DNA of 64,000 bases from Thermoanaerobaculia bacterium (GCA_035525285.1 DATLFB010000044.1:108441-172440); one strand, 5' to 3'; positions 17,317 to 64,000 are shown, numbered from the stretch's first letter. Program-made: numbers and translations. Notes: a model not told the origin generated them from the letters alone.

Positions 17317-17333
17317 CGCTGTTATCCTTCGAG

Positions 17334-22448: not shown

Positions 22449-22540
22449 CAGCGATGAACGATGAACGATGAACGATGAACGATGAATTATGAACGATGAA
22501 TGACGTGCGATCGTTCATCGTTCATCGTTCATCGTCATGC
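22447..22540. repeat. mirror tandem-array hairpin of the GATGAAC/GTTCATC unit family (second copy of the 2657-2749 family)
   Basis: gatgaacgatgaacgatgaacgatgaac...cgttcatcgttcatcgttcatcgtcat. Confidence 0.9.
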
Positions 22541-23598: not shown

Positions 23599-24153
23599 AT
23601 GCGTAAGCTCATCCTCGCCACTACCCTCGTCCTCGCCGCCTCCACCGCCAGCGCCGTGACCGTCGCCGGCGCAAACATCGAAGACTCCGTCAGCGTCAAC
23701 AACCAGAATCTCGTGCTCAACGGCGCTGGACTGCGCAAGAAGTTCGTGGTCAAGGTCTACGTCGGCGCGCTCTACCTGCCTTCAAAGCAGACGAACGCGG
23801 CCGCGATCATCGCCGCCGACACGCCGCGCCGCATGGTCATGCACTTCGTGTACGACGTCGAGAAAGGCAAGATCGCCGAGGCGTGGGGAGAGGGACTGAC
23901 CGCGAACACGCCGAACGCGTCGCCGGAAGTGAAGACCGCGTTCAAGACCCTCGCCTCGTGGATGGAGGACATGAAGGACGGTCAGCGCATCACGATGACC
24001 TACGTCCCCGGCATCGGCACGACCGTCGAGGTGAACGGAAAGAGCAAAGGCACCCTCGGCGGAAAAGCCGTCGCGGACGCGATCCTGAACACGTGGATCG
24101 GCCCGAAGCCGGGCCCGGGCGGGGATTTCAAGAAGGGCGTGCTGGGGCAGTAG
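23599..24153 (+). CDS. chalcone-isomerase-like (CHI-like) family secreted protein
   Basis: A signal peptide is followed by VLNGAGLRKKFVVKVYVGALYL, typical of bacterial CHI-like proteins. Confidence 0.65.
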   Translation: MRKLILATTLVLAASTASAVTVAGANIEDSVSVNNQNLVLNGAGLRKKFVVKVYVGALYLPSKQTNAAAIIAADTPRRMVMHFVYDVEKGKIAEAWGEGLTANTPNASPEVKTAFKTLASWMEDMKDGQRITMTYVPGIGTTVEVNGKSKGTLGGKAVADAILNTWIGPKPGPGGDFKKGVLGQ

Positions 24154-25946: not shown

Positions 25947-25965
25947 GAAGGGGGAGTCTATCTCG

Positions 25966-26074
25966 GTTGCCCGGCTGCCCGGTTTCCCGGCGACGCCGTC
26001 CGGGTGGCGGCGCCAGACGTTGCTGAGGCGCCGGCTCCCGCGCGGCGCCGCCGGGAAGCCGGGCAACCGGGAAG
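25966..26074. repeat. octamer mirror-array element (CCGGTTGC-type units on one arm, GCAACCGG-type on the other)
   Basis: ggttgcccggctgcccggtttcccgg ... ccgggaagccgggcaaccgggaagcc. The same family occurs at 27730-27810, 31121-31212, and as a single arm at 59378-59411. Confidence 0.85.
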
Positions 26075-26077
26075 CCT

Positions 26078-27729: not shown

Positions 27730-27810
27730 GGGTTGCCCGGTAACCCGGTTGCCCGGTTTCCCAGTGTGTTTTTCTCCGGGCAACCGGGCGACTGGGCAAC
27801 CGGGCAACCA
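27730..27810. repeat. octamer mirror-array element (CCGGTTGC/GCAACCGG family)
   Basis: gggttgcccggtaacccggttgcccggtttcccagtgtg...ccgggcaaccgggcgactgggcaaccgggcaacc. Confidence 0.85.
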
Positions 27811-30226: not shown

Positions 30227-30227
30227 G

Positions 30228-30322
30228 AGGTTCGAGGTTCGAGGTTCGAGGTTCGAGGTCAGAATGAAGAGGCAGTCTCTCTCTTCATTCGTCCTTCGAA
30301 CCTCGCACCTCGAACCTCGGCT
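30228..30322. repeat. mirror tandem-array hairpin: (GAGGTTC)x5, a spacer, then GAACCTC units
   Basis: gaggttcgaggttcgaggttcgaggttcgaggtc...ccttcgaacctcgcacctcgaacctcgg. Confidence 0.9.
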
Positions 30323-31120: not shown

Positions 31121-31212
31121 TCCCGGTTGCCCGGTTGCCCGGTTGCCCGGTTGCCCGGTAGCCCGGTAAGCGGCACACTGGGAAACCGGGCGACTGGGCA
31201 ACCGGGCAACTC
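31121..31212. repeat. octamer mirror-array element (CCGGTTGC/GCAACCGG family), in the opposite orientation to the copy at 27730
   Basis: cccggttgcccggttgcccggttgcccggttgcccggtagcccggtaagcggcacactgggaaaccgggcgactgggcaaccgggcaac. The core cacactggg here is the reverse complement of cccagtgtg at 27760. Confidence 0.85.
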
Positions 31213-47789: not shown

Positions 47790-49556
47790 CTATCGGGGAG
47801 AGGGGACTGAGCGCACGCGCGCGAGGAAGTCCGCGGGGGGCTCGAAGCCGCTGAGCCGCAGGTCGGTCAGCTCGCGCCCGCTCGAGTCGAGGAAGACGAG
47901 CGTCGGGACGCCGAGGATTCCGTACTCCTTCGTCAATCGCTTCGTGGTCTCGTCGTCGGGTGCGGTGAGATCCGCCTTCACGCGTACGAAGCGATCCAGC
48001 TCCGCCACCACCGCGGCGTCGGTGAACGTATTCGCGTCGAGCTCCTTACACGGCAGGCACCAGTCGGCGTAGAAGTCGATCACCACCGGCTTGTTCGCCG
48101 CCTTCGCGGCCGCGAGCGCTTTCGCGTCGTACTTCTCCCACTGCACTTCGACCGCGTGCTTCTTCGGAATCGCGAATGCCACGCCGGAGACGAGCAGGAG
48201 GATCGAGATCGCGATCCGCCACACGCGCGCGCCCTGCGCACGGCCTGAGAAGAAGAGGAACGCCGCGCCGACGAGCAGGCTCGCGGCGACGCCGTACTGG
48301 AACGCGAAGTCGCCGATGATCGGGCGGACGAAGTAGAACGCCATCGCGATGAGGATGAAGCCCATCGCCTTCTTCACCTGCACCATCCATTCGCCCGAGC
48401 GCGGCAGCGCGGTCATGCCCGATGAGAAGATGCCGAGCAGCAGATACGGCACGCCGAGTCCGAGGGCGAGAACGAAGAACATGAGGAAGCCGAGGAACGG
48501 ACTCTGGAGGCTGCTCACGAGCGCGATCAGCGAGATCACGAACGGTCCGACGCACGGCGCGGCGACGATGCCGATCAGCAGTCCCATGGTCAGCGCGCCG
48601 GCCAGTCCCGCCTGTCCGCCGGAGCGGCTGGTGATGAACTGCGGCACGCGGATCTCGAAGAGCCCGAACATCGACGACGCCATCACGAGCATCAATCCGG
48701 CGAAGAAGAAGAGGACGCCGGGATGCTGCAGCCAGGCGCCGAAGAGTTTTCCGGACAGCGCGGAGAAGACGCCGAGCACGGAGTACGTGACGGCGATGCC
48801 GAGCACGTAGAGCGACGAGAGCGCGGCGCGGCGTCCGGTGCTGCTGCCGCTCTGCGAGCTGAAGTAGCCGATCGTGATCGGGATCAGCGGATAGACGCAT
48901 GGGGTGAGATTCAGCGCGAGGCCGAGGACGAAGATCGCGAGGAGCGTGAGCGGCAGCCCGCGCTCGGCAAGCGTCCCTTTGACGTCGCTCGAGAAAAGGC
49001 TCGATTTCGCCTTCGCACCCTTCGGCGCCGCACTGAGCGGCGTAAACGTAGCGGCGGGCTTCAGCCCGCCGGCGGGCGCCGCGGTGATCTTCGCGAGATC
49101 GATGGTCGCGATCGCATCCGCGGGCGGCAGGCAGACGCGATCGCTGCAGGCCTGATAGCGCAGCTTCGCGGTGAGCGCCGTCGCGCCGGCATCGAGCGTG
49201 GCGGTGAACGGAATCGCGATCGTGCCGTCGTACACCGCGAGCTCTTTTCCGCCGGTGAACTCGAACGCCTTCATCGCGTGCGCCGGGTATTCGAGCTTCG
49301 CGTCGCTCGCGCCGGCGAACGTCAGGACCGTCGGAATCGCGAACTCTTCGAGCGGCGTGGCCGAGTTGACGTGCCACCCCTCCGCGATCTTCGCGGTGAC
49401 GGTTCCCTCGATCGCGTCGCCGTCACGCTTCTGCAGCGCGCCGTCGATCGTCACCTTCGGCGACGCATCGCCGCCGGGAAAATCGAGCTGGGCGGCGGCG
49501 GAGACGGCGGTGAGGAGGAGGAGAAGAAAGACGAGACTTCGGTGTGTCAACGTCAC
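47790..49556 (-). CDS. dsbD: thiol:disulfide interchange protein DsbD
   Basis: An N-terminal periplasmic alpha domain, a cytochrome-c-biogenesis-type TM core, and a C-terminal thioredoxin domain with WCLPCK are present. Confidence 0.85.
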   Translation of the reverse strand: MTLTHRSLVFLLLLLTAVSAAAQLDFPGGDASPKVTIDGALQKRDGDAIEGTVTAKIAEGWHVNSATPLEEFAIPTVLTFAGASDAKLEYPAHAMKAFEFTGGKELAVYDGTIAIPFTATLDAGATALTAKLRYQACSDRVCLPPADAIATIDLAKITAAPAGGLKPAATFTPLSAAPKGAKAKSSLFSSDVKGTLAERGLPLTLLAIFVLGLALNLTPCVYPLIPITIGYFSSQSGSSTGRRAALSSLYVLGIAVTYSVLGVFSALSGKLFGAWLQHPGVLFFFAGLMLVMASSMFGLFEIRVPQFITSRSGGQAGLAGALTMGLLIGIVAAPCVGPFVISLIALVSSLQSPFLGFLMFFVLALGLGVPYLLLGIFSSGMTALPRSGEWMVQVKKAMGFILIAMAFYFVRPIIGDFAFQYGVAASLLVGAAFLFFSGRAQGARVWRIAISILLLVSGVAFAIPKKHAVEVQWEKYDAKALAAAKAANKPVVIDFYADWCLPCKELDANTFTDAAVVAELDRFVRVKADLTAPDDETTKRLTKEYGILGVPTLVFLDSSGRELTDLRLSGFEPPADFLARVRSVPSPR

Positions 49557-50456: not shown

Positions 50457-51272
50457 TCAGCGACCGACTCCCTGTGACGTTTCGGTCGCTTCTTTTTTCT
50501 TCTCTTTTGCATGTTGCCGCGCGGCGTCGACGAATGCCCCGAACAACGTCGAGGCGCTGCCCTCCCCGCTCATGTCCTCCGGGTGCCACTGCACGCCGAC
50601 GTAGAACGGATGCCGCGGGTCCTCGAGCCCTTCGATGATGCCGTCGGGCGCGTGCGCGGTGACGGTCAGGCCCTCGCCGACGCGGCCGATGGCCTGATGG
50701 TGCGAGGAGTTCACGTTGAGCTCGAGAGGAGGGCGGACGTCCCGTCCGCCGTCGCCCAGGCGGACGGGACGTCCGCCCTCCATTCCGCCGAGGATCTTCG
50801 CCAGCTTCGTGCCGCCCTCGATGATCACGTCGTGCCGCGCGCGGTCTTCCGGCACGCTGGCGTGCGCGATCTCCGTTTCGACCTGCGCGGCGATGTCCTG
50901 CACGAGCGAGCCGCCCGCGGCGACGTTCATGACCTGCACGCCGAGGCAGATGCCGAGGACGGGGATGCCGCGGTCGCGCGCGGCTTTCGCGAGGGAGACG
51001 TCGTTGCTCTGGCGGCGCGGGTCCATCGGCTCGACCGTGGGATGGCGGTCTTCGCCGTACAGCGCGGGGTCGCAGTCGTCGCCTCCCGCGAGCAGCACGC
51101 CGTCGAGCTCGCTCACGAGCTCAGCCGCGTTCTCGGGCTGCGGCGGGATGAGCACAGGAATCGCGCCGGCGCGCCGCAGCGCGTCGACATAGGTGAGATA
51201 GATGAAGGCACGCTCGCGCTTGCCTGGCGGGCTCTGGACGTCGGATCCGATTCCGATGATGGGCTTGATCAT
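50457..51272 (-). CDS. gamma-glutamyl-gamma-aminobutyrate hydrolase family protein (peptidase C26, class I glutamine amidotransferase-like)
   Basis: Contains GICLGVQ (Cys nucleophile) and HHQAIGRVG...VGVQWHPE. An in-frame copy of the 54-bp nested palindrome sits at 50728-50781. Confidence 0.75.
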   Translation of the reverse strand: MIKPIIGIGSDVQSPPGKRERAFIYLTYVDALRRAGAIPVLIPPQPENAAELVSELDGVLLAGGDDCDPALYGEDRHPTVEPMDPRRQSNDVSLAKAARDRGIPVLGICLGVQVMNVAAGGSLVQDIAAQVETEIAHASVPEDRARHDVIIEGGTKLAKILGGMEGGRPVRLGDGGRDVRPPLELNVNSSHHQAIGRVGEGLTVTAHAPDGIIEGLEDPRHPFYVGVQWHPEDMSGEGSASTLFGAFVDAARQHAKEKKKEATETSQGVGR

Positions 51273-51365
51273 GACTTCGATGATATTGCGAAATTCACGC
51301 TGACTCCGAGGCGTTTTCGGAGGCTCAACCAACAATGACGACAACCCAACGTTTCTTCACGAGAC

Positions 51366-52319
51366 TTGCCACCGCTCTGTTCGCCTTCGCCGCTGCTCCA
51401 TGCGGGCGCGACCGGCACGCAGATCCAACTCGACGCGCTGCCGTCGTACGTCGACCGCGTGTTCGTCCCCGTGGTTCCGCAGACGGAGAACACGCTCGCC
51501 ATCGAGAACCTTGCCATCGACCAGGTGCTCGAGGCGCCGCCCGGATTCGACGTGCGCGCGAAGAATGGCGCGGTCGTGATCGCGCCGGCGGCGGGCGAGC
51601 GCTCCGGCTACGCGCGCGTGCGCGGCGGCGGACGCGAGCTCACGCTGACGCTGGTGAGTCTCGTGCCGTACGCGGAGATGAAGAACGGACGTCTCGACGG
51701 CTATCGGGTCGGCGAATACAACGCCGAGCCGCTGCGCGGCCTCGAACAGTACGAGCGGCCGAAGGGATTCATCCGCCTCACCGATGCGAACTCGGCGCTG
51801 TGGGTCTCCGATCACTACCGGATGCGCGATTTCCAGTGCAAGCTCGATGGAACGACGAAGTTCCTCATCCTCCGCTCCGAGGCGCTGGTGAAGCTGGAGA
51901 TTCTGCAGCATGAGCTGGAGACAAAGCACGGACTGGCGTTCGATCGTTTCACGGTGATGTCGGGCTACCGCACGCCGTACTACAACTCGCGCATCGGCAA
52001 CGAGACGAGCTACTCGCGTCATCTCTACGGCGACGCGATGGACATCTACATCGACCAGGACCGCAACGGCAGCATGGACGACGTGAATCGCGACGGCCGC
52101 ATCGACGCCGGCGACGCGCGCTTCATCCTCCGCGTGGCCGAGCAGATCGACAACTCGCGCGAGTGGGGCTGGCTCAAGGGCGGCGCGGGCGTGTATCACG
52201 CAAACGCCGCGCACGGACCGTACCTGCACGTCGACGCGCGCGGCTACGTGGCGCGCTGGGGTCCGGTGGAAGAACCGGCGACGCTGCGCGCGTCGTCGCG
52301 CGCGGCGGCGGCGCGGTAA
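51366..52319 (+). CDS. peptidase M15A / DUF882 (YcbK-like) zinc D,D-carboxypeptidase-like protein
   Basis: Contains SGYRTPYYNSRIGNETSYSRHLYGDAMDI. A signal peptide is encoded in a different frame starting at 51335, so a frameshift is possible (see findings). Confidence 0.65.
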   Translation: MPPLCSPSPLLHAGATGTQIQLDALPSYVDRVFVPVVPQTENTLAIENLAIDQVLEAPPGFDVRAKNGAVVIAPAAGERSGYARVRGGGRELTLTLVSLVPYAEMKNGRLDGYRVGEYNAEPLRGLEQYERPKGFIRLTDANSALWVSDHYRMRDFQCKLDGTTKFLILRSEALVKLEILQHELETKHGLAFDRFTVMSGYRTPYYNSRIGNETSYSRHLYGDAMDIYIDQDRNGSMDDVNRDGRIDAGDARFILRVAEQIDNSREWGWLKGGAGVYHANAAHGPYLHVDARGYVARWGPVEEPATLRASSRAAAAR

Positions 52320-52340
52320 GACGTGCGATAATCGCTCGCG

Positions 52341-52919
52341 ATGACGGTATCGTTCCACGACGTCAGATCCTCGTACGCCGAGTACGTCGCGTTCGAGAAT
52401 TCGAGCAATGTCAGGCACGAATTCCTCGATGGTCGGATCTACGCGATGGCGGGTGGGACGCCGGAGCATGCGGCGCTGGCGATGGCCTTCGGTGGTCAGT
52501 TGTACGCGCAACTCCTCGGCGGGCCCTGCCGTTCCTATCCTTCGGACCTGCGCATCCTCACGCGCTCCAGTCTCGCGACCTACCCCGACCTTGCGGTGAT
52601 CTGCGGATCACCCCTCCGCGATGTCAGCGATACGCTCGCAGCTACGAATCCGACGATGATTGTCGAGGTCCTCAGCCCTAGCACCGAGGAGTACGACACC
52701 ACCGAAAAGTTCGAGCACTACAAAACGCTCCCATCGCTGCAGCAATACGTGCTCGTGTCTCACCGCGAACGCGCCATTGAAGTCTGGACAGGTGAGAGAA
52801 GCGGCACGTGGCAGAAAACCACCGTGCGCGAAGGCGAGATCGCCGATCTCGTCCTCGGCTTGCGCCTCGACGTCCGCGAGCTCTACGACGCAGCCGCCGT
52901 CCTGCCTGCTCGAACGTAA
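52341..52919 (+). CDS. Uma2-family (DUF820) putative endonuclease
   Basis: Contains EFLDGRIYAMAGGTPEHA, PDLAVICG, and TMIVEVLSPSTEEYDTTEKFEHYKTLPSLQQYVLV. Confidence 0.75.
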   Translation: MTVSFHDVRSSYAEYVAFENSSNVRHEFLDGRIYAMAGGTPEHAALAMAFGGQLYAQLLGGPCRSYPSDLRILTRSSLATYPDLAVICGSPLRDVSDTLAATNPTMIVEVLSPSTEEYDTTEKFEHYKTLPSLQQYVLVSHRERAIEVWTGERSGTWQKTTVREGEIADLVLGLRLDVRELYDAAAVLPART

Positions 52920-52930
52920 CCCTGACGTTC

Positions 52931-53626
52931 CTACCCGAGAAACTTGTAGCCGAGTCCGTGCACCGTGACGATGAACGCCGGCCGCGCGGGATTCGACTCC
53001 AGCTTCTGGCGCAGCGAGGCGATGTGCACGTCGACGGTGCGCGTGACCGGCGTCGCGTCGTAGCCCCACACCTTCTCCAGCAGCTCGTCGCGCGAGAGCA
53101 CGGCGCCGCGATGATCGACGAGGTAGCGCAGGAGCTTGAGCTCGAGTCCGGAGAGCTCGATCGGCGCACCGGCGCGCCTCACTTCCGCGCGGCGGAAGTC
53201 AGCTTCGACGTCGCCGAACGCGTAGACGTCCGCGCTGCTCGAGGCGATCGTGCGCGAGCGGCGCAGCAGCGCTTCGATGCGCGCGAGCAGCTCCGCCATC
53301 TCGAACGGCTTGGTCACGTAGTCGTCGGCGCCGAGCTTCAGCCCGAGCACGCGATCGATCACCTGCCCGCGCGCGGTGAGCATGAGGATCGGCGTCTGCA
53401 CGCCGCGCTGGCGGAGATCGCGGCAGACGTCGAAGCCGTTCTTCTTCGGCAGCGCGACGTCGAGCAGGATGCAGTCGAACGAGCGGTTCGTCGCCGTTTC
53501 GAGCGCCGCTTCGCCGTCCGTCGCGACCGTCGTGTCGTAGCCCTCGCTCGCGAGGCGGTCCTGCATCGTGAGGATCAGGCTCTCCTCGTCTTCGACGAGC
53601 AGGATGCGGCGCTGCACTTCACCCAC
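52931..53626 (-). CDS. OmpR-family response regulator
   Basis: A receiver domain (ILLVEDEESL...CILLDVALP) and a winged-helix domain (LLEKVWGYDATPVTRTVDVHIASLRQKL) are present. Confidence 0.85.
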   Translation of the reverse strand: MGEVQRRILLVEDEESLILTMQDRLASEGYDTTVATDGEAALETATNRSFDCILLDVALPKKNGFDVCRDLRQRGVQTPILMLTARGQVIDRVLGLKLGADDYVTKPFEMAELLARIEALLRRSRTIASSSADVYAFGDVEADFRRAEVRRAGAPIELSGLELKLLRYLVDHRGAVLSRDELLEKVWGYDATPVTRTVDVHIASLRQKLESNPARPAFIVTVHGLGYKFLG

Positions 53627-55247
53627 GATGCGTCTCCGCCGGCAGGTGGATCGTGAAGGCCGCGCCGCTGCGCCGTTTGCGATCGACGTCGACGGAGCCG
53701 CCGTGCGCGCGCGCGATCTGCTGCACGATCGCCAGGCCGAGGCCCGCGCCGCGCACGCGGGTGCTGTTGCGGCCGCGATAGAAGGGCTCGAAGAGACGCG
53801 CGGTGTCGCGGCCGTCGATGCCGGGCCCGCGGTCCTCGACGGTGATCGCGACGCCGCTGCCGTTGCGCGACACGCGCACGCCCACCCACCCGCCGCTGCC
53901 GCCGTGACGGATCGCGTTCGCGACGAGGTTCTGGATCGCGCGGGTGAGCGCCTGCGCGTCGCCGCGCACGCGCGGCAAATCCGTTTCGACCTGCGTCTCG
54001 ATGGTCACTTCCGCGTCGAGGGCACGGCATTGCTCCACCGCCTCGCCGACGATCGCCTCGACGTCGACCGGCTCGTGCGACGCGCGCGCGTTGGCGCGCG
54101 CCTGGATGCCCGCGAAATCGAGGACCTGCGCGACCATGTCGCCGAGGCGCGCGGATTCCTTCACGATCACGTCGCCGTAGCGCGTGAGCTTCTCGCCGTC
54201 GGCAACGATGCCGTCCTTGAGGTTCTCGCCCGCCGCGCGCAACGCGGCGATCGGCGTGTTCAGCTCGTGCGTCATCGCCGCGACGAATTGCGCCTGCTGC
54301 GCGCGCAGGCGATCCGCGCGGCGCAGCAGCGCGAGCAGCAGCGCGACGGTGGCCGCGAGAATGAAGAGGATGCCGAAGCTGAGCGCGAGGTTGCGGCGGC
54401 GCGCGGAGGCGACGAGTGTCTCGAGCGCCGCATCGCGCCGGCGCACGAGAAGACGCCACGGCTCCATCGGCGGTCGATTCGGCGCCATCGCGCGCAGCGG
54501 CACGGGGCGCACCGCGGGCTCGAATGCGACGAACGGCACTTCGACGTCAGGCAGCGTGCGTCCGTCGGGCCACGACGGGTCGGAGCGGAACAGCAACTCC
54601 GTGCCGCGCATCACCGCGACGTCGTACGAGTCGGTTCCCGTCGCGAAGTGCTGCGCCGCGAGCTGCGGCAGGATCACGTCGACGAGCTGCGCGCGATCGA
54701 GCTGCACGAAGATCGCCGGGCGATCGTCACGCATCTCCTCGAACCCTGCCGGCGGCGGTCCGCGCCTCGGCGCAATCAACAATCCCGGCACGTCGGCCAC
54801 GAACGGCGGCGGCCAGCGCGCCGGTCCTGCCATCGATTCAATCTGCCGCCGCAAGCCCGCGAGCGCCTCCGGCCACGTGCTCTCGACGAGCTGCAGCGAG
54901 TCGAGATCGAGCATGCGCACGGAGTCCCGCTGGATGACGTAGATGTTCGCGATGAGCCGCGGATGCACGGCGATGCTCGCCCAATCCCCGTAACGCTGCC
55001 CGAGATCGCCGCCCTCGGGACGCGCGAAGCTCTCGAACACCTCCCCGATCTCCGCGCGGAGCTCCTCGGTGAAACGGCGCGCGGCGAAGTCGATGTTCGC
55101 GCGCATCCGCTCGCGCTCCGCGTCGCTGACGCGATCGATCCAGCCGTACTGCAGCACGGCCAGCACGCCGAGGCCGGCGACCAGAAGCACGAGCAGTGCG
55201 GCGAGCAGCGCGTTCGTGCCGCGCGAAGGACCCCCCGATGAACCCAT
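53619..55247 (-). CDS. sensor histidine kinase (HisKA / HATPase_c), Cpx/Bae-like
   Basis: Two TM helices flank a periplasmic region of about 250 aa. The H-box is FVAAMTHELNTPIAAL, and ATPase motifs are present. Confidence 0.8.
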   Translation of the reverse strand: MGSSGGPSRGTNALLAALLVLLVAGLGVLAVLQYGWIDRVSDAERERMRANIDFAARRFTEELRAEIGEVFESFARPEGGDLGQRYGDWASIAVHPRLIANIYVIQRDSVRMLDLDSLQLVESTWPEALAGLRRQIESMAGPARWPPPFVADVPGLLIAPRRGPPPAGFEEMRDDRPAIFVQLDRAQLVDVILPQLAAQHFATGTDSYDVAVMRGTELLFRSDPSWPDGRTLPDVEVPFVAFEPAVRPVPLRAMAPNRPPMEPWRLLVRRRDAALETLVASARRRNLALSFGILFILAATVALLLALLRRADRLRAQQAQFVAAMTHELNTPIAALRAAGENLKDGIVADGEKLTRYGDVIVKESARLGDMVAQVLDFAGIQARANARASHEPVDVEAIVGEAVEQCRALDAEVTIETQVETDLPRVRGDAQALTRAIQNLVANAIRHGGSGGWVGVRVSRNGSGVAITVEDRGPGIDGRDTARLFEPFYRGRNSTRVRGAGLGLAIVQQIARAHGGSVDVDRKRRSGAAFTIHLPAETHRG

Positions 55248-55405
55248 TTGCCGGCGAGTCTAACGCGGTGCGCGCGGCGCCGCGCGGCGTCGCATCCACG
55301 TTTTACGTTTCTTACGAAGTTCTTGCGACGTCATGAAGTTCCCGGCGCGCGATGAGGCCATATTGCGATGCATCCGAAACGGGACAAACGAAAGGAAACG
55401 AAAAC

Positions 55406-55873
55406 ATGAAACGCCTCATCATCCTCACTCTCTCGGTTCTCCTCGTGGCCGCCGGCGCGTTCGCCGCGCCGCCGCCGCCCCAGCAACAGGGCCCGGGCGC
55501 GCCGTCTCCTCCGGGCGGAGGTCCTCGCGGCGATGAGATCCTCGCCGATTACCTCGATCTCACCGCCACTCAGATCGAATCGTGGAAGACGATCCAGACC
55601 GAGCTCCGCGCGGCCGTCGAGCCGCTTCGCGAGCAGGAGCGCGCGCTGCACGAGCAGCTCCGCACCGCGCTCGACGGAACCGACGCGAATGCGATCGGCA
55701 GCCTGATGCTGCAGATCCGCGCGATCGGCGATCAGGTCAAGGCCGCGCGCGAAGCGGCCGACGCAAAGTTCGTGGCGCTGCTGACGACCGAGCAGAAAGC
55801 GAAGTTCGAGGCCTTCCAGGCGGCGGTCGAATTTCTCCGCCAGAATGGGCCGGGAGGTGGCCCGCCCCGCTAA
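55406..55873 (+). CDS. periplasmic Spy/CpxP-like protein (LTxxQ motifs)
   Basis: Signal peptide MKRLIILTLSVLLVAAGAFA. Contains LTATQIESWKTIQ and LTTEQKAKFEAFQ. Confidence 0.7.
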   Translation: MKRLIILTLSVLLVAAGAFAAPPPPQQQGPGAPSPPGGGPRGDEILADYLDLTATQIESWKTIQTELRAAVEPLREQERALHEQLRTALDGTDANAIGSLMLQIRAIGDQVKAAREAADAKFVALLTTEQKAKFEAFQAAVEFLRQNGPGGGPPR

Positions 55874-55948
55874 ACTTCACGGCAATCGTGCGGGCGGCGG
55901 CCGATCGACGCGGATGGCCGCCGCCCGAACGAGGCAGGCATAGACACC

Positions 55949-56458
55949 ATGCGAATCAAATTCGTTCTTCCTCTCCTTTTCATCGCCGTCGGCGCGCTCG
56001 CGCAGCCGATGGAGCCGCCGCGCGGCGGCGGCCGGCGCGGGCCGGAGCTCCTTCCGCCGCCGGGCTGGTGGCACGATCCGTATCTCTCTGAGAGCGTGAA
56101 CCTGACCGACGAGCAGACCGACAAGCTCGACGACCTGCAGGACGCCGCGCGCGCCGAATCCAGACAACTCGAACGAGACGTGCGCAAAGCGGACGACGAG
56201 CTGCGCGCCGCGCTGAATGACCGCAACGCCAGCGTCGAGCGCATCGTCGCCGCTGGCAATCGCGTCGCGACGCTGCGCGATCAGATGCTGCGCAAGCAGA
56301 TCGTGGCGCTCGCCAATCAGCGCGCGATCCTCACGCATGCGCAATGGACCGCGCTGCAGAAGCAACTCGACGAACGGCGCGGCCCGCCGATGCACGATCG
56401 CGGCGGCTTCCGCCCGGGCGGTCCGCCACGCGGCGGAGGCATGCGGCCGCCGCGGTAA
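55949..56458 (+). CDS. periplasmic Spy/CpxP-like protein (LTxxQ motifs), second copy
   Basis: A signal peptide is followed by LTDEQTDKLDDLQ and LTHAQWTALQKQ. Confidence 0.7.
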   Translation: MRIKFVLPLLFIAVGALAQPMEPPRGGGRRGPELLPPPGWWHDPYLSESVNLTDEQTDKLDDLQDAARAESRQLERDVRKADDELRAALNDRNASVERIVAAGNRVATLRDQMLRKQIVALANQRAILTHAQWTALQKQLDERRGPPMHDRGGFRPGGPPRGGGMRPPR

Positions 56459-56459
56459 A

Positions 56460-56805
56460 ACGTAGCGGCGGGCTTTAGCCCGCCTACGGGGCCGACCGGC
56501 TGAAGCCGATCGGAGATCGGCGGACCGGCCGACTGAAAGTCGGCGTTCCGTTTTCGAGTAGCGCGGCCTTCCAGGCCGCCGTGTCGCTGGCTTCCAGCCA
56601 GCGATGTCGCCGGCAGGATGCCGGCGTTACGGCGGGCAGGATGCCCGCGCTACAACTCCCGCTTGGGCAACGGTCATGGAACGCCGACATGCTGTCGGCC
56701 GGTCCGCCGACTTCCAGTCGGCGGGTTTTGACGCCGATCGGAAATCGGCGGACCGGCCGACTGAAAGTCGGCGTTCCGTTTCGAGAAAAAGGTAGGCGGT
56801 CGCTA
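56460..56805. repeat. hairpin-dense non-coding region with two direct copies of about 55 nt
   Basis: GCCGATCGGA(G/A)ATCGGCGGACCGGCCGACTGAAAGTCGGCGTTCCGTTT occurs at 56506-56556 and 56733-56790. At least five more stem-loops lie between them. One (ccgccgacttccagtcggcgg + gttttg) looks like a terminator. Confidence 0.8.
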
Positions 56806-56810
56806 CGTTC

Positions 56811-57701
56811 TCACGCGCGTTTCTTTTTCTTCATCGCCGCGCGTTTGCTCGCGCGGCGCGGCGGCTTGCGGGCGGCCGTGCCGCCGCCGAGGGAGCGGCT
56901 GAGGACGGCGAGGAGATCGACGACTTCCGCGCCCGGCTCTTCCGGCTTCATGCCTTCCGGCGCGCGGATCACGTCCTCGCCCTTGCGTTGCTTCGCGGCG
57001 ACGAGCTTCTCGAGCCGCTCCTCATAGTCGTCGAGCAGCTCCCCCGGATCGAGCTTGCGCGACTTCTTCGCGATCTGGCTCTCGAATTTCTTCACGTCCG
57101 CGGCCGTCGCCTTCGCTTTCTTCGGCAATCCGATCTGCTCCGGCGTGCGGACTTCGTCGTGGAAGCGCAGCGTCTCCGCGCGCAGGATCCCATCCTCGGC
57201 CAGGATCGCCACGAGATACTCCTTCGCGCGCATCACGAACGTCGCGATGCCCGCGTATCCCTTCTTCTCCATCACTTCGGCGAGCAGTCGATACGCTTTG
57301 TTCGAGCCGCCGGAGGGAACGAGGAAATAGCCGCGCTCGAAGTAAACGGGATCGAGCGCATCGGCATCGACGAAGAGCTGCAGATCGATCTCGCGCGACT
57401 TGCGCGGCTCGATCGCCTCGAGCTCTTCATCCGTGACGACGACGTACTTGTCCTTCTCGATCGCGTAGCCGCGCACGATGTCGTCCGCGTCGAGCTCCTT
57501 CTCGTCTTTCGAACAGATGTAGCGCCGCTCGACCGTCGCGCCGTCGGGTCCGACCATGCGCAGCGCGGTGCCGCCGGAACGCGTCGCGGCGTAGAGCGCG
57601 ACGGGAACGGTGACCAGGCCGAACGTGATCGTGCCGGTCCAGAACGAGCGAATGCCGCCCGGTGCGCTGCCTTCTTCGACGTCTTCGAGCTCCTCAGCCA
57701 T
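56811..57701 (-). CDS. ku: Ku protein (non-homologous end joining)
   Basis: FWTGTITFGLVTVPVALY matches the Ku core, with a Lys-rich C-terminal tail. Confidence 0.85.
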   Translation of the reverse strand: MAEELEDVEEGSAPGGIRSFWTGTITFGLVTVPVALYAATRSGGTALRMVGPDGATVERRYICSKDEKELDADDIVRGYAIEKDKYVVVTDEELEAIEPRKSREIDLQLFVDADALDPVYFERGYFLVPSGGSNKAYRLLAEVMEKKGYAGIATFVMRAKEYLVAILAEDGILRAETLRFHDEVRTPEQIGLPKKAKATAADVKKFESQIAKKSRKLDPGELLDDYEERLEKLVAAKQRKGEDVIRAPEGMKPEEPGAEVVDLLAVLSRSLGGGTAARKPPRRASKRAAMKKKKRA

Positions 57702-58482
57702 GTTTCCTCTTTCCCGCGCCCGCGAGACTCGCCTCGAGGACGTCGGCGAGCTGCTCTTCGCGCTTCGGCTTCCGCGGGCGGAAGACTTTCATCTTCACCT
57801 TCCCACCCTCGGCCTTCGTTTCGACGAGCTCCATCACCCGCGCGCGGTACTCATCCCGATATTGCGAGGGATCGAGCTCGCCGTGCAGCGCTTCGAGCAG
57901 CTGCGCGGCCATGTCGAGCTCGCGCTTCTGCATCGGACGTCCGCCCGGCGGCTTCAGCGCGTCGGCGGCGATGATCTCGTCCGCGTGCCGCAGGACGATG
58001 AGCATCAGATGGCCCTCCTCTTCGCGCAGCGCACCCGCGTACGCGCGGTCGCGCATCACCCACTTCGCGATCGCCTGTTTGTTTTTCTTCCTCAGCGCCT
58101 CGGCGAGCGCAAAGTAGGCCTTCGTGTTGCCGTCGGGTCCGAGGTAGTACGCGCGCTCGTACCAGCGTTGATCGACGTCCGCGGGATCGACGAAACGCGT
58201 GATCGCGATGTCGCGCGATTCTTCCGGCTCGAGCGTTTCCAGCTCCTCGTCCTCGAGGACGACCATCCGCCCGCGCGACACCGGATACGCTTTCCTCACC
58301 TCGGCGTACTCGACCGGCTTGCCGCTCTCCGAGCTCACGAGTTGCTGCTTGACGGGTTGCTTGTCGGTCTTGTGCAACAGGCGGAAGTGCACCGTGCGAT
58401 CGGTGACTCCGGAGTAGAGCTTCACCGGCACCTCGATCGAGCCAACATGAATGACGCCTTTCCACATCGCGCGTGCGGCCAT
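57694..58482 (-). CDS. ku: Ku protein, second paralog; its stop overlaps the first Ku start by 8 nt
   Basis: MAARAMWKGVIHVGSIEVPVKLY is the Ku N-terminus. I chose the ATG at 58482. The ORF-track start at 58584 runs into a palindromic element. Confidence 0.8.
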   Translation of the reverse strand: MAARAMWKGVIHVGSIEVPVKLYSGVTDRTVHFRLLHKTDKQPVKQQLVSSESGKPVEYAEVRKAYPVSRGRMVVLEDEELETLEPEESRDIAITRFVDPADVDQRWYERAYYLGPDGNTKAYFALAEALRKKNKQAIAKWVMRDRAYAGALREEEGHLMLIVLRHADEIIAADALKPPGGRPMQKRELDMAAQLLEALHGELDPSQYRDEYRARVMELVETKAEGGKVKMKVFRPRKPKREEQLADVLEASLAGAGKRKHG

Positions 58483-58514
58483 GCCGAGGATCATTGCAAA
58501 TGGAACGCCGCCTG

Positions 58515-58592
58515 TGTGGAGTGCGGCGACGCCAGTCGCCGCTTCTCTACGCGCATACAACAGCGGCGACTGGCGTCGCCGCACTCCACATC
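58515..58592. repeat. MITE-like element with terminal inverted repeats of about 30 bp (TGGAGTGCGGCGACGCCAGTCGCCGC...GCGGCGACTGGCGTCGCCGCACTCCA)
   Basis: The same inverted repeats, with a longer internal spacer, occur at 476-590 between the ABC ATPase and permease genes. Confidence 0.85.
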
Positions 58593-60765
58593 ACTTCACC
58601 CAGATCCGCGAACTGTCCCGCCTGCCCTGCGCGTCGATCGCCGTAATCACGTGCATGCCGGGCGCGAGCGGCCACTCGAGCGAGCCGCCGGGCGATGACG
58701 AGCCGATGCGGCGGTCGTCGATGTGCCAGGCGACGCGCGTCGCGGCAAGCGCGCGGAGGCGCAGGGTCTGGAACTCGCTGCGCAGCGTGGGATCGATCAG
58801 GTACGTCGCGCCGTCCGGCGGATTTGCGATCTCGAGCGGAGCGCGGTGCATCGTCGCGGTCTGCGCGCGCTGCGGCGGCAGCCAGCCGCGATATTCGGCG
58901 GGCCAGTCGATCCAATGGTCGTGATGCCACGAACAGAATCGCGGCGCGGCGTCGACGGGCAGCCATTCCTTGCGCAGCGAGTCGCACCACTGCGTCGGAC
59001 GCGCACCGGAGAGCGCGCAGATCTCGACGGACTCGACATCGGCAGTCGGCGCGACGATCGGCGTCGAGTCGCCGATGGGCAGCGTGCCCCGCGCGCGTTT
59101 CATCGCCGCGAGCATCACCGCGTGAAAGACCGGCGCGGCGCCGGTGACGCCGGTCGAGCCGCGCAGCGGCCGCAGGTCGAAGTTGCCGACCCACACGCCG
59201 ACGGTGACGTCTTTCGTGTAGCCGATCGTCCAGTTGTCGCGATACGACTGCGAGGTTCCCGTCTTCACGGCGACGGGAAACGGGAAGTCGAGACTGCCGC
59301 CGGTGCCGAAGGCGTAGGCGCGCGCTTCGGGGTCGGCGAGGATGTCGGTGATCCAGAACGCGGTGCGCTTCGCGAAGGGTTGCCCGGTTGCCCGGTTGCC
59401 CGGTTGCCCGGCGAAGAGTGAATAGGCTTTGACGAGTTGCTCTAAGGTCACCTCGGCGTCGCCGAGTGTCAGGCCGAGGCCGTAGTAGTCCGCGGTGCGC
59501 TGCAGATCCGTGAATCCCGCGTTGCGCAGCAATCGCAGCAGCGCCTCGGGGCCGAGTTTCGAGAGCATCGCTACCGCGGGGACGTTCTGCGATCCCGCGA
59601 GCGCCGCGCGGATGCGGAGCGGGCCGCGATAGCGGCCGTCGTAGTTGCGCGGCGAGTAGACGATGCCTTCCTCGGCGGTCGGGAAGTGCGAGGGAACATC
59701 GGCGAGGACGGTCGCGGGCGTCTCGCCGCTCTCGAACGCGAGTGCGTACGTGAACGGCTTCAGCGCCGATCCCGGCTGGCGCGGCGTGGTGACGCCGTCG
59801 ATCGCACCGCCGAAGCCCTCGCCGAAGTAGTCGCCGGAGCCTTCCCATGCGAGCCACTCGCCGCTCGCGTTGTCGAGCACGGCGACCGCGACGCTCGACG
59901 CGCCGTGGCGGAGGAGCTCTTTCCTGTGCGCGTCGATGATGCCGATGACGTCGCGTTGCAGGTCTGCGTCGAGCGTGGTGAGGAGGGCGGACGTCTCGTC
60001 CGCCCCGCGGGGGGCGGACGAGGACGTCCGCCCTCCAAGGACACGCTCGACGAAGTGCATCGCCAGCACGGGCTGCGCGCCGCGCACGAACCGCAAGCGC
60101 TCCGCGCGCGCGAGCGCGAGCTCCTGCGGCGTCAACTGCATCCGCGCGAGCACGTGCAGTTGCCTCGCGCGCGCGCGCTGCGCGTCGCGCCGCGGATTGA
60201 ACGCGCCCGGCCGCTGCGGCAGCGACGCGAGAAACGCGGCCTGCGCGGGCGTGAGGTTCTCCGGCGCGCAGCCGAAGTACGCGCGGCTCGCGCGCGCGGC
60301 GCCGGTGATGCGGTTTCCGTACGGCGCGAGGTTGAGGTACATCGCGAGGATCTCGCGCTTCGTGTAGCGATGTTCGAGCCGGAGGGCGACGACGCTTTCG
60401 CGCCACTTCGAGCGCAGCGAGCGGTCGCGCGATTGCAGGATCAGCTTCGCGACCTGCTGCGTGATCGTCGAGCCGCCTTCGACGACGCGCATCGCGCGCA
60501 CGTTGTGTGCCGCGGCGCGGGACACCGCAATCGGATCGATGCCGATGTGCGAGAAGAATCGCCGATCCTCGGCCGCGAGCGTCGCGTCGACGATGCGCGG
60601 AGGGAGCGCATCCGCGCTCAGCCATTCCGTCCGGTTGCCGCTCGCGCCGAGGGACTCGTAGAGGACTTCGCCGTGACGGTCGACGATCGTGACGTGACGC
60701 GGAGTTTCGATGTGCGGGATCGGGCCGAGGCGGAGCCACGCCACGAACGCGATCACCGCTGTCAT
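58591..60765 (-). CDS. pbpC: penicillin-binding protein 1C (GT51 transglycosylase, transpeptidase, PbpC C-terminal domain)
   Basis: Contains EDRRFFSHIGIDP...GGSTITQQVAK (GT51) and a transpeptidase core. It lies directly downstream of the alpha-2-macroglobulin gene. Start placed at MTAVIAFV (60765). In-frame repeat copies sit at 59378-59411 and 59982-60036. Confidence 0.85.
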   Translation of the reverse strand: MTAVIAFVAWLRLGPIPHIETPRHVTIVDRHGEVLYESLGASGNRTEWLSADALPPRIVDATLAAEDRRFFSHIGIDPIAVSRAAAHNVRAMRVVEGGSTITQQVAKLILQSRDRSLRSKWRESVVALRLEHRYTKREILAMYLNLAPYGNRITGAARASRAYFGCAPENLTPAQAAFLASLPQRPGAFNPRRDAQRARARQLHVLARMQLTPQELALARAERLRFVRGAQPVLAMHFVERVLGGRTSSSAPRGADETSALLTTLDADLQRDVIGIIDAHRKELLRHGASSVAVAVLDNASGEWLAWEGSGDYFGEGFGGAIDGVTTPRQPGSALKPFTYALAFESGETPATVLADVPSHFPTAEEGIVYSPRNYDGRYRGPLRIRAALAGSQNVPAVAMLSKLGPEALLRLLRNAGFTDLQRTADYYGLGLTLGDAEVTLEQLVKAYSLFAGQPGNRATGQPFAKRTAFWITDILADPEARAYAFGTGGSLDFPFPVAVKTGTSQSYRDNWTIGYTKDVTVGVWVGNFDLRPLRGSTGVTGAAPVFHAVMLAAMKRARGTLPIGDSTPIVAPTADVESVEICALSGARPTQWCDSLRKEWLPVDAAPRFCSWHHDHWIDWPAEYRGWLPPQRAQTATMHRAPLEIANPPDGATYLIDPTLRSEFQTLRLRALAATRVAWHIDDRRIGSSSPGGSLEWPLAPGMHVITAIDAQGRRDSSRIWVK

Positions 60766-60925
60766 CCCGAGCGCAGCGAGGGACCTGGGGGTCAGGGCGG
60801 CGCGAGCACGGCGCCACCCGCCCGCCCGGGTCCCTCGCTCACGCTCGGGATGACGTGGGGTCACTTCTCCACCTCCACCGGGGTCACTTCTCCACCTCCA
60901 CGTGGGGTCACTTCTGCACCTCCAC
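60761..60925. repeat. SLTLGMT-family palindrome (60761-60854) followed by 3 tandem copies of a GGGGTCACTTCTCCACCTCCAC unit of about 23 bp (60855-60925)
   Basis: gtcatcccgagcgcagcgagggacc...ggtccctcgctcacgctcgggatgac, then gtggggtcacttctccacctccaccg repeated three times. Confidence 0.85.
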
Positions 60926-63900
60926 CGTCACCGTGCCCGTCCTTCCGAATACCTCCGGCTCGTACATTTCCTCCGCGTGCGTCGGGGCGGTGATGAAAGT
61001 GCCCGCGGTCGTGGCGCGCACGAGGTACGAGTATTCGTGCTCGCCTTCGCCGAGGCGGGTGGCGAAGAGGTTGACGCGATCGTCGTGGCGCTCGACGTGA
61101 TCGAAGCCGCCGCGCTCCCACCAGGTCCACCAGTCGCCGCCCCCGTCCGACCGCATCTGCGTTTCCGCGAGCTGCGCAGCGGTCGTCGCGAACCACGTTT
61201 CCACCGGCTCGGTGCCCGCGGGAATCGGATCGGTCACCGCGACGTAGCGGCGCTCCTTCGTGTTGCGGATGCGCAGCGTGACGAGGATCAGATCGCCCGC
61301 CTTGAACGTCGTCGACGGTTCGCCGCCGCTCTGCAGCGCGTACGAACGCTCGACGCGGAAACCGCTGTCGAGCGCCTGCAGGCACTGGATGTTTCGCGCG
61401 TAGCGCAGCCGCAGCATGTAGAAGAGCGTGCCCGTGCCTTCGCGCGTGAAGACGACGGGAAGCGTTCCGCTGCGACGCAGCACGTCCTGCATCGAGAACT
61501 CTTTCCGCCTCGCCTCGGTCGAGCGGCCCTTGAACGTCTCGGTCGCGATCGTTTCGGTTCCGAGCGCAACGGTCGCGACGAAGTCGGGGATCTCTGACTC
61601 GTACTTGCGGTAGTAGTCGACGAGCGCTTCCATCGCCCACGCGTTTTCCTGCGTGTTGCCCCACCGCCCTTCCTTCCGCACGCGCATCATCCAGCGCACC
61701 ATGCGCTTCACCATCTCTTCTTCGGATCCATGACGCACCAGCGTGCCGAGAGTCATCGCGGTCGAGCGCACGTTCGAGTTCCAGAACCAGAGCAGATACG
61801 GATCGCTGAGCTCGTTCACGAACGCGTGTCCTCCCTCGGGGAGGATCGAGTTCATGATGCGGCGCTTCAGATCCGTCACGCGCGGACCGCTCGTCTCCTT
61901 TTTGGCAATCATCGCGTCGAGTAGATGCGTGAGTCCGAACACCGGCATCCGATCGCGATACTCGTAGATGCGATTGAGGTTGCTGTCGACGTTGCGCCCG
62001 CCCTCGGCGAGCACCTTCAGCGCGAACGCCTGCCACGCGTTGTATGCCGGACGCCACCCCTCGTTGTTCGGCGGCGCCTGTCCAAGGACTCCTTCGAGGA
62101 ACGCGTAGGCCCGATCCATCATCGTCTGGTCGACGCGATAGCCGAGCTTCGCGCCGCGCTGGAAGACGTGCATCACGTAGCTCGTGAGATACGGCGGGGA
62201 CGGACCCCAGCACTCGCCCGGCCAGAACGAGAACCCGCCGTCGCCGCACTGGAACTTGCGCAGCTCGTCGAGATTCGTCTGGACGGCCTCTTTTTGTTTG
62301 GCCGGATCGATTCCCGGCAGCGAGAACGCATCGCCGAGATCGGTGACGAGCATCAACGCCAGCGCGCGCGACGAGCGCTGCTCCGCGCAGCCGTACGGAT
62401 ACTCGACGAGATACTGCGCGCCTTCGGCGAGACCGACCATCGCGGTCGACGAGAGATCCACGCGCAATCCGCCGAAGCCGGGAACGACGTCCGTCGGAAT
62501 CTGGAGGGCGGACGTCCCGTCCGCCAAGCGGACGGGACGTCCGCCCTCCGGGACTTCGCCATACGCGGCAACGGTCTCCGGCGACACGATCACGCGCACC
62601 GGGATCACGTCTTCGAACGCGTCGGCCTCGCGCCCCATCTTCACGCGCATGCGAATGCGCGCGACGCCGACGCTCTTCGCTTCGGCATCGAAGCGGACTT
62701 CGTTTGCGGAGCCGGGCTTCACGTCGACCGTCGAACTGCCACCGATCGCGATCACGTTCGGATCGAGCGACTCGATCGTGACAGTCGCCTTGCCGCCCTT
62801 TTTGAGCTGGTTGTGCACGACCGCGCCGAAATGCGCTTTGTCGCCGGCGGTGAGGAACCGCGGCCAGGCCGGCGTGAGCATCAGCGGCTTGTTGACGCGG
62901 ATCTCGTTCGACGCCCAGCCGAAGCGCGACTCGCGGTCGCCGGCAACGGCCATGATGCGATACGTCGTGAGCGACTCGGGGAGCGTGACTTCGGTGCGCG
63001 CGCGGCCCTTCGCATCGGTGATGAGCGATCCGAGCCAGAACGCGAGCACGCGGAAGTCCTTGCGCACCACGCCCGGACCCGCGTCGCGTCCGCCGCCACC
63101 GCCCTCGCCCCCACCCTTCGGCGTGAGCACGCGGCGGCTGACGATGCGCTGGCGCGAGTCTTCGTTCGCGACCTGCAACGCCTTGTCGAGATAGATCGAC
63201 TCGAGCACGTCGGGCGTCCTGTAGTTCGTCAGCGACAGCACGCCGTAGTCGACGGCCCACAACGTGACCTCCGACTGCGATGGCTTGCCGCCCGCGTCGC
63301 GCACGTTGACTTCGATCTTCGCCTTCGACGCGGGACGGAACTCGTCGCGATCGGCTTTCACGTTCACGGCGAGACGCTTCGATGCGTCTTCGACCTGCAA
63401 TTCGACATAGCCGAGGCGGAACGCGGGCTTGCCGGGATCGCTGCCGTCCTTCCCATCATTAATATCCGGATCTTTCTTCGTGCGTCCTTTGACGAGCAAC
63501 ACCGAGACGAACACGTTCGGGATGTCGCGCTCGGTGAGCGGCACGCTCACCGTTTGCTGCGTCGAGGTCAGCGTGAATGTCGTCCACGTGCGGACGCCTT
63601 CGCGCTCGGTGGTGAGCAGCGCGGTCGCCGTTTCCCACGGCGACTTGATCATGATCCGCGCGGTCTCGCCGGGGCGATACGTCGTCTTTTCGGGCACGAG
63701 ATCGATGCGGTTGTGATCGAAGCGCTCCCAGGCGGTGTAGCCCTCGCCGAGGGCGTAGAAGCCGACGCGCGTCGTCGTCGAGCGCCCGGCGTTCTCCGCG
63801 TGCCCGATGATCACGTAGCGGCCGCCTTCCTTCAGCGGGATGTGCAGCGGCACGGGCTTCGTCTCGCTGGTGATCGTCCACTCACCCGCGGGAATCTCTT

Positions 63901-64000
63901 TCCGCTCCGTTTCCCATTCGTAGAATCCGTGCCCCTCGGCCCTGCGCACGCTGACCCACTGGATGCGCTTGAGCTCCACGGTGACCTTCACGCCCGCATC
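60908..64000 (-). CDS. bacterial alpha-2-macroglobulin (YfhM-like), partial; the N-terminus lies beyond the window
   Basis: The thioester motif GCAEQ is present (EYPYGCAEQRSS), with MG-domain-like repeats. There is no stop before position 64000. It sits in the conserved pairing with pbpC. Confidence 0.85.
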   Translation of the reverse strand, partial: DAGVKVTVELKRIQWVSVRRAEGHGFYEWETERKEIPAGEWTITSETKPVPLHIPLKEGGRYVIIGHAENAGRSTTTRVGFYALGEGYTAWERFDHNRIDLVPEKTTYRPGETARIMIKSPWETATALLTTEREGVRTWTTFTLTSTQQTVSVPLTERDIPNVFVSVLLVKGRTKKDPDINDGKDGSDPGKPAFRLGYVELQVEDASKRLAVNVKADRDEFRPASKAKIEVNVRDAGGKPSQSEVTLWAVDYGVLSLTNYRTPDVLESIYLDKALQVANEDSRQRIVSRRVLTPKGGGEGGGGGRDAGPGVVRKDFRVLAFWLGSLITDAKGRARTEVTLPESLTTYRIMAVAGDRESRFGWASNEIRVNKPLMLTPAWPRFLTAGDKAHFGAVVHNQLKKGGKATVTIESLDPNVIAIGGSSTVDVKPGSANEVRFDAEAKSVGVARIRMRVKMGREADAFEDVIPVRVIVSPETVAAYGEVPEGGRPVRLADGTSALQIPTDVVPGFGGLRVDLSSTAMVGLAEGAQYLVEYPYGCAEQRSSRALALMLVTDLGDAFSLPGIDPAKQKEAVQTNLDELRKFQCGDGGFSFWPGECWGPSPPYLTSYVMHVFQRGAKLGYRVDQTMMDRAYAFLEGVLGQAPPNNEGWRPAYNAWQAFALKVLAEGGRNVDSNLNRIYEYRDRMPVFGLTHLLDAMIAKKETSGPRVTDLKRRIMNSILPEGGHAFVNELSDPYLLWFWNSNVRSTAMTLGTLVRHGSEEEMVKRMVRWMMRVRKEGRWGNTQENAWAMEALVDYYRKYESEIPDFVATVALGTETIATETFKGRSTEARRKEFSMQDVLRRSGTLPVVFTREGTGTLFYMLRLRYARNIQCLQALDSGFRVERSYALQSGGEPSTTFKAGDLILVTLRIRNTKERRYVAVTDPIPAGTEPVETWFATTAAQLAETQMRSDGGGDWWTWWERGGFDHVERHDDRVNLFATRLGEGEHEYSYLVRATTAGTFITAPTHAEEMYEPEVFGRTGTVTVEVQK

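Follow-up and report, generated by a model that had tools for sequence, protein, structure and literature searches.

A probable cluster of REP-type palindromic units, arranged as a tandem run of REPIN-like elements, between convergent cpxP-like and ku genes in a Thermoanaerobaculia genome

Between a cpxP-like gene and ku, in the genome of an uncultured soil Thermoanaerobaculia bacterium (Acidobacteriota), lies a spacer crowded with hairpins. A sequence-only reading of this DNA had proposed a discrete structured RNA or stacked terminators, with clustered REP-like elements as the fallback, and the question is which of these the tract represents. It was analyzed within a window of 64,000 nucleotides, the whole stretch of DNA available around it, from whose first letter positions are counted. 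The best matches of Ku are from Thermoanaerobaculia MAGs, at 73-77% identity. NCBI lists a protein identical to the one encoded upstream of the tract under the name 'periplasmic heavy metal sensor [Thermoanaerobaculia bacterium]'; the stop codon of the upstream gene (TAA) occupies positions 56456-56458. The tract fills the spacer of two convergent genes, beginning 2 nt past one stop codon and ending 1 nt before the other. The flanks named earlier, a second CpxP-like gene and ku, are borne out by Pfam matches.

The tract (56461-56809) holds about 12 G+C-rich hairpins with perfect stems of 7 to 9 bp. The earlier count of at least seven stem-loops was too low. Together with the two flanking genes, its parts are as follows.

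55949-56458, + strand: upstream gene, the second of two for a CpxP/Spy-like periplasmic protein (LTXXQ / Metal_resist; Pfam PF13801, PF07813).
56461-56488, + strand: U0, a hairpin of a second repeat family, (A)CGTAGC-GGCGGGC-TTTA-GCCCGCC-TACG, tags GTAG/CTAC; recognized from its sequence and near-copies in the window.
56494-56511, + strand: U1, GACCGGC-TGAA-GCCGATC, which together with U0 makes up a doublet; the same doublet architecture occurs at 21430-21478.
56505-56550, - strand: module M1, made of U2 (GCCGAT-CGGAG-ATCGGC-GGACCG) and U3 (GCCGAC-TGAAA-GTCGGC-GTTCCG); recognized from the direct repeats and from unit model scores of 32.4 and 34.9 bits.
56558-56653, no strand assigned: element B, REPIN-like, doublet U4-U5 against inverted doublet U6-U7; 47-nt arms, complementary at 37 of 47 positions, with a 2-nt gap.
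56654-56677, no strand assigned: spacer of 24 nt between elements B and C (AACTCCCGCTTGGGCAACGGTCAT).
56678-56778, no strand assigned: element C, REPIN-like, inverted module U8-U9, a 10-nt spacer, and module M2 (U10-U11); 46-nt arms, complementary at 40 of 46 positions, with an 8-nt gap.
56793-56809, no strand assigned: remnant TAGGCGGTCGCTACGTT, which looks like the decayed, degenerate partner of the left-hand ACGTAGC element (U0) and closes the outer inverted repeat; compared with intact head-to-head dimers after ku in loci L012 and L024.
56811-57701, - strand: ku (Pfam PF02735), which forms a tandem pair with ku2 and comes second in it; it converges with the CpxP-like gene.

The two nearly identical modules of about 55 nt that had been reported are direct repeats at 56501-56553 and 56729-56781, 53 nt long and 96% identical; allowing one indel, the match extends to approximately 57 nt, through GTTCCGTTT(T)CGA. 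The earlier description missed a third copy of the two-hairpin module, present in inverted orientation at 56678-56723; the arms of 46 nt are 87% complementary. Four hairpins at the center of the tract (56558-56653) make up an imperfect palindrome of 96 nt, with 47-nt arms that are 79% complementary, and the tract as a whole is enclosed by an outer inverted repeat, ACGTAGCG...CGCTACGT. M1, the first direct-repeat copy, is a solitary doublet whose minus-strand tag reads GGAAC/GGTCC; U1 is fused to it, as the 3' arm of U1 doubles as the 5' arm of U2. In element B, U4 (GTAGC-GCGGCC-TTCCA-GGCCGC) and U5 (CGTGTC-GCTGGC-TTCCA-GCCAGC) face U6 and U7, with GTAGC...GCTAC as outer ends. U6 and U7 are the twins with AGGAT loops noticed before, GCCGGC-AGGAT-GCCGGC at 56609-56625 and GCGGGC-AGGAT-GCCCGC at 56632-56648, and carry the tags GTTACG and GCTAC. 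In element C, bounded by GGAAC...GTTCC, the U8-U9 half has the tags GGAAC and CGGTCC, and M2 is the second direct-repeat copy. The stem followed by a U-run is found here as well, at 56704-56724, and continues into GTTTT.

Ten of the hairpins can be aligned gap-free and represent one 23-nt unit, GC-NNNN-N-GGA-N-NNNN-GC plus a 6-nt tail. It consists of a G+C-rich stem of 6-7 bp, a loop of 3-5 nt (N-GGA-N, read as N-TCC-N on the opposite strand) and a tag of 6 nt. The stems vary by paired changes (GCCGAT, GCCGAC, GCGGCC, GCTGGC, GCCGGC, GCGGGC). Across the alignment, pairing extends to 98.6% of cells, and both sides change in four of the seven pairs, a result reached by none of 500 shuffles. Read on the opposite strand, the tail becomes a head tag: GTAGC (U4, U7), GTAAC (U6) or GTGTC (U5), and elsewhere GGAAC (U3, U8, U11 and a copy at 24348) or GGTCC (U2, U9, U10). 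The canonical GTAG is thus present in only two of the ten units, U4 and U7, with GTAAC in U6 as a variant. Units pair in tandem to form a 46-nt module, giving five doublets of alternating orientation (<<, >>, <<, >>, <<). Inverted modules in turn form long hairpins of approximately 100 nt with the tags outermost, so that the tract comprises two such elements and a half element.

Compared with dinucleotide shuffles, the tract folds with z-scores of -13.0 on the + strand and -12.4 on the - strand. The 500-nt bin at 56500 contains 15 perfect hairpin calls, against at most 7 in every other bin of the window, and the tract is the top cluster of strict hairpins in approximately 990 kb (the window and related loci), with 11, followed by clusters of 8 and 5. 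The hairpin density is far above chance. When the mismatches in the long arms are read on the + strand, three are of the G:T type and three of the A:C type, so neither strand is favored as RNA. Near-equal folding of the strands and unbiased mismatches are as expected for palindromes maintained at the DNA level.

A covariance model of the unit recovers the ten tract units at 30.8-35.3 bits and identifies one further copy within the 64 kb, a perfect match outside the tract (24348-24370, 34 bits). The same model finds matches of 29.9-34.9 bits in eight other loci of Thermoanaerobaculia type (L009, L014, L025, L016, L116, L121, L105 and L123). These belong to different genomes, in which the copies occupy varying positions relative to ku, and four-hairpin elements with GGAAC...GTTCC ends also occur in L016 and L121. 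As judged from these matches, the copies in eight other MAG loci show that the units are dispersed within the lineage. The covariance search over related DNA, a check suggested earlier, gave unit copies at unrelated loci. The exact two-hairpin module (TCGGCGGACCGGCCGACNNNNNGTCGGCGTTCC) has no match among GTDB species representatives or JGI metagenomes, which indicates that the source genome and near-identical strains are absent from these collections.

The single outlying copy sits in an unusual place. At 24344-24370, its perfect 11-bp stem (GGAACGCCGAT-TGGAA-ATCGGCGTTCC) coincides with the stop codon position of the orthologue (in L035, the protein ends ...FFVCRPK*). In this region (24128-24560), the copy abolishes the stop codon, and a decayed second version of the gene's 3' end comes after it; together, the lost stop and the duplicated end extend the open reading frame by approximately 80 codons.

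The second, ACGTAGC-tagged family is present at three loci in the window, namely U0 in the tract and near-copies at 21430-21478 and 49046-49071, the latter two being hairpins of the ACGTAGC-tagged GGCGGGC/GACCGGC type. The copy at 49046-49071 lies in the dsbD linker and was not retained as a proven insertion, the protein being merely 4 aa longer than its orthologues. In the related MAG L012, five ACGTAG-tagged inverted dimers are found within 20 kb, one of them directly 3' of ku. Another palindromic family, with ends GGAGTGCGG...CCGCACTCC around inner hairpins, occurs at 484-579 and 58523-58542 and is common to several Thermoanaerobaculia MAGs (L010 700-810, L013 432-537, L087 after ku, L099 5100-5187).

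The tract is likely a cluster of REP-type palindromic units that resembles a BIME or several REPINs in tandem. The fallback of clustered REP-like elements is the part of the earlier proposal that fared best, supported by the unit alignment, the alternating doublets, the dispersal and the non-conservation at the orthologous site. The tract would thus probably be a known kind of repetitive, probably mobile DNA rather than a dedicated structured RNA gene. According to Di Nocera et al. (2013, PMC3733652), GTAG-tagged REP families have stems of 6-9 bp, loops of 2-3 nt and degenerate tags (GYAG/GTRG/GTMG), and their subfamilies differ by complementary stem changes. REP dimers are described there as head-head, tail-tail or, rarely, head-tail, large clusters as reiterated dimers, and the spacers of convergent ORFs near 3' ends as favored sites. 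The resemblance of the tract to REPs and BIMEs (that survey; Nunvar et al. 2010, PMC2817692) lies in G+C-rich palindromes of 20-40 nt with short loops and an unpaired end tag, in some cases GTAG. It extends to stem variants with complementary changes, to dimers and a large alternating cluster, to the extragenic position near convergent 3' ends and, through a sister subfamily described below, to occasional in-frame copies inside genes.

The likeness is not complete. Most tags of the tract are GGAAC/GGTCC and fall outside the degeneracy described for such families (PMC3733652), although tag position and length fit and the U0 family carries a clean ACGTAG. Its repeating block is a tandem head-to-tail doublet, an arrangement reported there as rare, and conservation within the unit is highest in the loop (N-GGA-N). 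The host is an uncultured Thermoanaerobaculia bacterium, and neither a RAYT gene nor an IS200-like transposase was seen in the window or in approximately 1.7 Mb of related loci by tblastn with an approximate E. coli YafM query and by a scan for the HUH...Y motif, a weak search in DNA where a single-copy gene is rarely sampled. REPINs are inverted pairs of REPs that form long hairpins, and the hairpin of approximately 100 nt is regarded as their mobile unit (Bertels and Rainey 2011, PMC3116915). Like them, the tract has paired REP arms in opposite orientation with a short spacer between, long hairpins of this length and tandem clustering; it differs in that each arm holds two hairpins instead of one.

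Several other classes were set aside. The GGAAC...GTTCC ends do not, on inspection, fit the RYYYAAC/GTTRRRY ends of an integron attC site, and cassettes are absent. Inspection likewise gave no CRISPR array, since a 23-nt period leaves no spacers, and no retron noncoding RNA, there being no reverse transcriptase nearby. A small-protein reading was rejected too: the overlapping ORFs at 56484-56690 (- strand) and 56604-56795 (+ strand) have no record anywhere and run through the palindromes.

A sister subfamily of inverted doublets, GGAGG-GCGGAC-GTCYC-GTCCGC, has four copies in the window. Three were found by the unit model at 22-23.5 bits (17332-17381, 50727-50782 and 62502-62550), and the fourth (59985-60033) was recognized by eye. 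The copy at 17332-17381 is intergenic, and the other three lie in frame inside genes that are all on the - strand.

50727-50782: sister doublet in the peptidase C26 gene (50457-51344, - strand), adding 19 aa (MEGGRPVRLGDGGRDVRPP).
59985-60033: sister doublet in pbpC (58591-60864, - strand), adding 12 aa.
62502-62550: sister doublet in the alpha-2-macroglobulin gene (60908-63991+, - strand), adding approximately 8 aa net.

In each of the three genes, the insert is missing from approximately 17-30 orthologues. These alignments show that members of the sister subfamily were inserted recently; for the tract's own units, it is dispersal that points to mobility. In-frame intragenic REP copies are described for Opitutus terrae, Thauera and the Rickettsia RPEs by Di Nocera et al. 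(PMC3733652). The sister copies are like these in that they occupy three conserved genes and add 8-19 residues with the frame intact. They differ in belonging to a subfamily other than that of the tract, in occurring in a soil bacterium that is free-living and in being smaller than RPE-1.

At the position after ku equivalent to that of the tract, the tract is absent from 56 related genomes, a comparison made with relatives whose Ku is at best approximately 73-82% identical and hence not at strain level. For the closest CpxP-like homologue (78% identical), the contig is 1 kb long and extends just 32 nt past the stop codon, and no cpxP-like gene adjoins ku in approximately 40 related genomes. 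Several relatives have the peptidase C26 gene directly after ku, whereas here approximately 5.4 kb separate the two (51345-56810), which places the tract at an indel junction or synteny break. This interval is a variable island that has the repeat cluster at one edge; it encodes an M15 peptidase-like protein, a Uma2 nuclease, a histidine kinase and two CpxP-like proteins.

Hairpins after ku are nevertheless frequent among the relatives. The 120 nt following the gene have a folding z-score below -3 in 23 of 56 distinct relatives (41%) and below -5 in 15, compared to 1 of 56 for controls inside ku. The elements responsible vary by genome, being either REP-type dimers or inverted arrays of 7-10-nt tandem repeats, so that a strong hairpin at the 3' end of ku is recurrent while its sequence turns over. 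Such recurrence with turnover fits palindromic elements settling where a hairpin at the transcript end is tolerated or useful.

These hairpins bear on the proposal that the tract consists of stacked bidirectional intrinsic terminators, evolved in place under selection to insulate the cpxP-like and ku operons and unrelated to any repeat family. Its position between convergent genes, the strong hairpins after ku in relatives and three terminator-like sites (56528-56544 and 56756-56772 on the + strand, 56484-56467 on the - strand) resemble what Rho-independent termination would call for, namely G+C-rich hairpins with T-rich tails at gene 3' ends. However, with a loose consensus, terminator-like sites number 4 against 1.6 +/- 1.4 in shuffles and are not enriched, and 9 of the approximately 12 hairpins have no T-run. 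One or two hairpins would suffice, in contrast to twelve with internal duplication; the 96%-identical duplication and inverted modules are signatures of repeat amplification; and related units within coding sequences cannot terminate transcription. We therefore regard this origin as unlikely. What is plausible of the stacked terminators is a secondary role, which is compatible with the repeat-cluster reading. A discrete regulatory RNA with many hairpins, such as a sponge sRNA that offers loop GGA motifs to CsrA/RsmA-like or other RNA-binding proteins, would resemble CsrB and RsmY/Z/W in having GGA in the loops of several hairpins. Seven of the ten units have such a loop, each on the appropriate strand, and two CAGGATG loops resemble the high-affinity CsrA core, ANGGA presented in a loop. 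The GGA loops are split between the strands, though, with U2, U6, U7 and U10 on the + strand and U4, U5 and U9 on the - strand, leaving at most four per transcript. The comparison with Rfam, also proposed earlier, returned no match at gathering thresholds over the whole window. Below threshold, RsmW reached 17.8 bits against a gathering score of 52 (E = 6), miRNA-precursor models 32-39 bits against thresholds of 84-100, as long hairpins will produce, and epsC was noise. No sigma-70-like promoter was found in the tract, the two strands fold alike, the tract is not kept at the orthologous site in the 56 relatives, and units of this type occur as a dispersed DNA repeat in coding sequences and unrelated loci, in either orientation. 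A small sample of available DNA yielded no csrA by tblastn. The discrete structured RNA is thus not supported, and a sponge sRNA seems very improbable.

It could also be asked whether the array, or the junction of cpxP and ku, arose by mis-joining or looping through short repeats in the metagenome assembly. An independent Logan assembly of the same sample reproduces both tract ends exactly, up to approximately 56532 and from approximately 56754 (including U0-U2 and U11). Its contigs stop inside the repeated module on both sides, so that the middle, 56533-56753, comes from the MAG assembly alone, and the absence of cpxP-like genes beside ku in every relative would suit an artefact as well. On the other hand, assembler loops would give identical copies, whereas here two positions and one indel distinguish the modules and the inverted copy shows 6 differences in 46 positions. 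Typical reads, like the final k-mers of MAG assemblers, are longer than the repeats (at most 57 nt), and similar four-hairpin elements are present in contigs of long-read-derived MAGs, such as L016. An assembly artefact is exceedingly improbable on this evidence.

For the cluster of REP-type units, a history can be sketched. Intact ACGTAG...CTACGT inverted dimers lie directly 3' of the ku stop codon in L012, L013, L024 and L027, which suggests that GGA-loop elements were inserted or amplified within an older dimer of this kind; the REPIN-like elements would then sit inside an older ACGTAGC-tagged inverted dimer. The cluster may have grown by insertion of elements, by local duplication or by both, the likeliest agent being a HUH (RAYT-like) transposase acting on single-stranded DNA or template switching associated with replication. 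Both convergent transcripts, of the cpxP-like gene and of ku, would end in very stable hairpins. These could act as transcription barriers and as blocks to 3' exonucleases, either as a by-product or in a co-opted role, and the tract probably doubles as a putative bidirectional transcript-end structure.

A bolder proposal would be that Thermoanaerobaculia possess a lineage-specific superfamily of hairpin repeats conserved in the loop (N-GGA-N), with neither a canonical GTAG nor a RAYT, that propagate in an undescribed manner, colonize genes in frame and build arrays whose transcripts show their GGA loops to an RNA-binding protein. We consider this combination quite unlikely; were it true, the density of in-frame colonization would rival that of Rickettsia, with three insertions in 64 kb. 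The tract itself is ordinary, another cluster of REP/BIME type. Its modest value is to record REP-like families from an acidobacterial class that is uncultured, along with their unusual module of tandem doublets and their tags, most of which are not GTAG, and to mark a synteny breakpoint beside the conserved ku2-ku pair. No prior description of such repeats in this class was found in the literature searched, and in the available text of the REP survey (PMC3733652), Acidobacteria are mentioned only for tyrosine transposases flanked by long inverted repeats. For annotators, the locus is a warning: short-read assemblies break at tracts of this type, and sister elements add residues in frame to real proteins.

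Two side observations may be of greater interest than the tract, namely the three in-frame insertions in adjacent genes and the many inverted-array hairpins built from 7-8-nt units between genes. The insertions resemble the behavior of Rickettsia RPEs, here in a free-living soil bacterium. Within pbpC, a fourfold repeat at 59378-59411 ((GGTTGCCC)x4) was considered as a further new insertion and rejected, since the encoded GQPGNRATGQP has a similar peptide in orthologues; the protein also lacks, compared with orthologues, the 13 residues immediately before this peptide. At the junction of the alpha-2-macroglobulin gene and pbpC, a unit of 23-24 nt (GGGGTCACTTCTCCACCTCCACC) is repeated three times in tandem (60853-60927).

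On the same strand, downstream of these two genes, lie two tandem Ku paralogues (56811-58584) that are approximately 31% identical to each other. The ku2-ku pair is kept in all relatives examined (L003-L058), which include Thermoanaerobaculia, Gemmatimonadota and other soil lineages. This conservation suggests a heterodimeric bacterial Ku.

The inverted arrays may be more unusual than the tract itself, and no named class for hairpins of this build was found in the literature searched. In many intergenic spacers, a long hairpin is formed by a tandem array of a 7-8-nt unit facing an array of its inverted complement. Within the window, such hairpins are located at 1523-1607, 2657-2750, 5943-6070, 7596-7661, 22452-22535, 25964-26076, 27731-27809, 30227-30319 and 31122-31211, and they also occur just after ku in L004, L007, L015, L032, L084, L088 and L099. 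Examples are (AACGATG)5...(TTCATCG)6 and (CCCGGTTG)6...(CAACCGGG)n, the unit changing from spacer to spacer.
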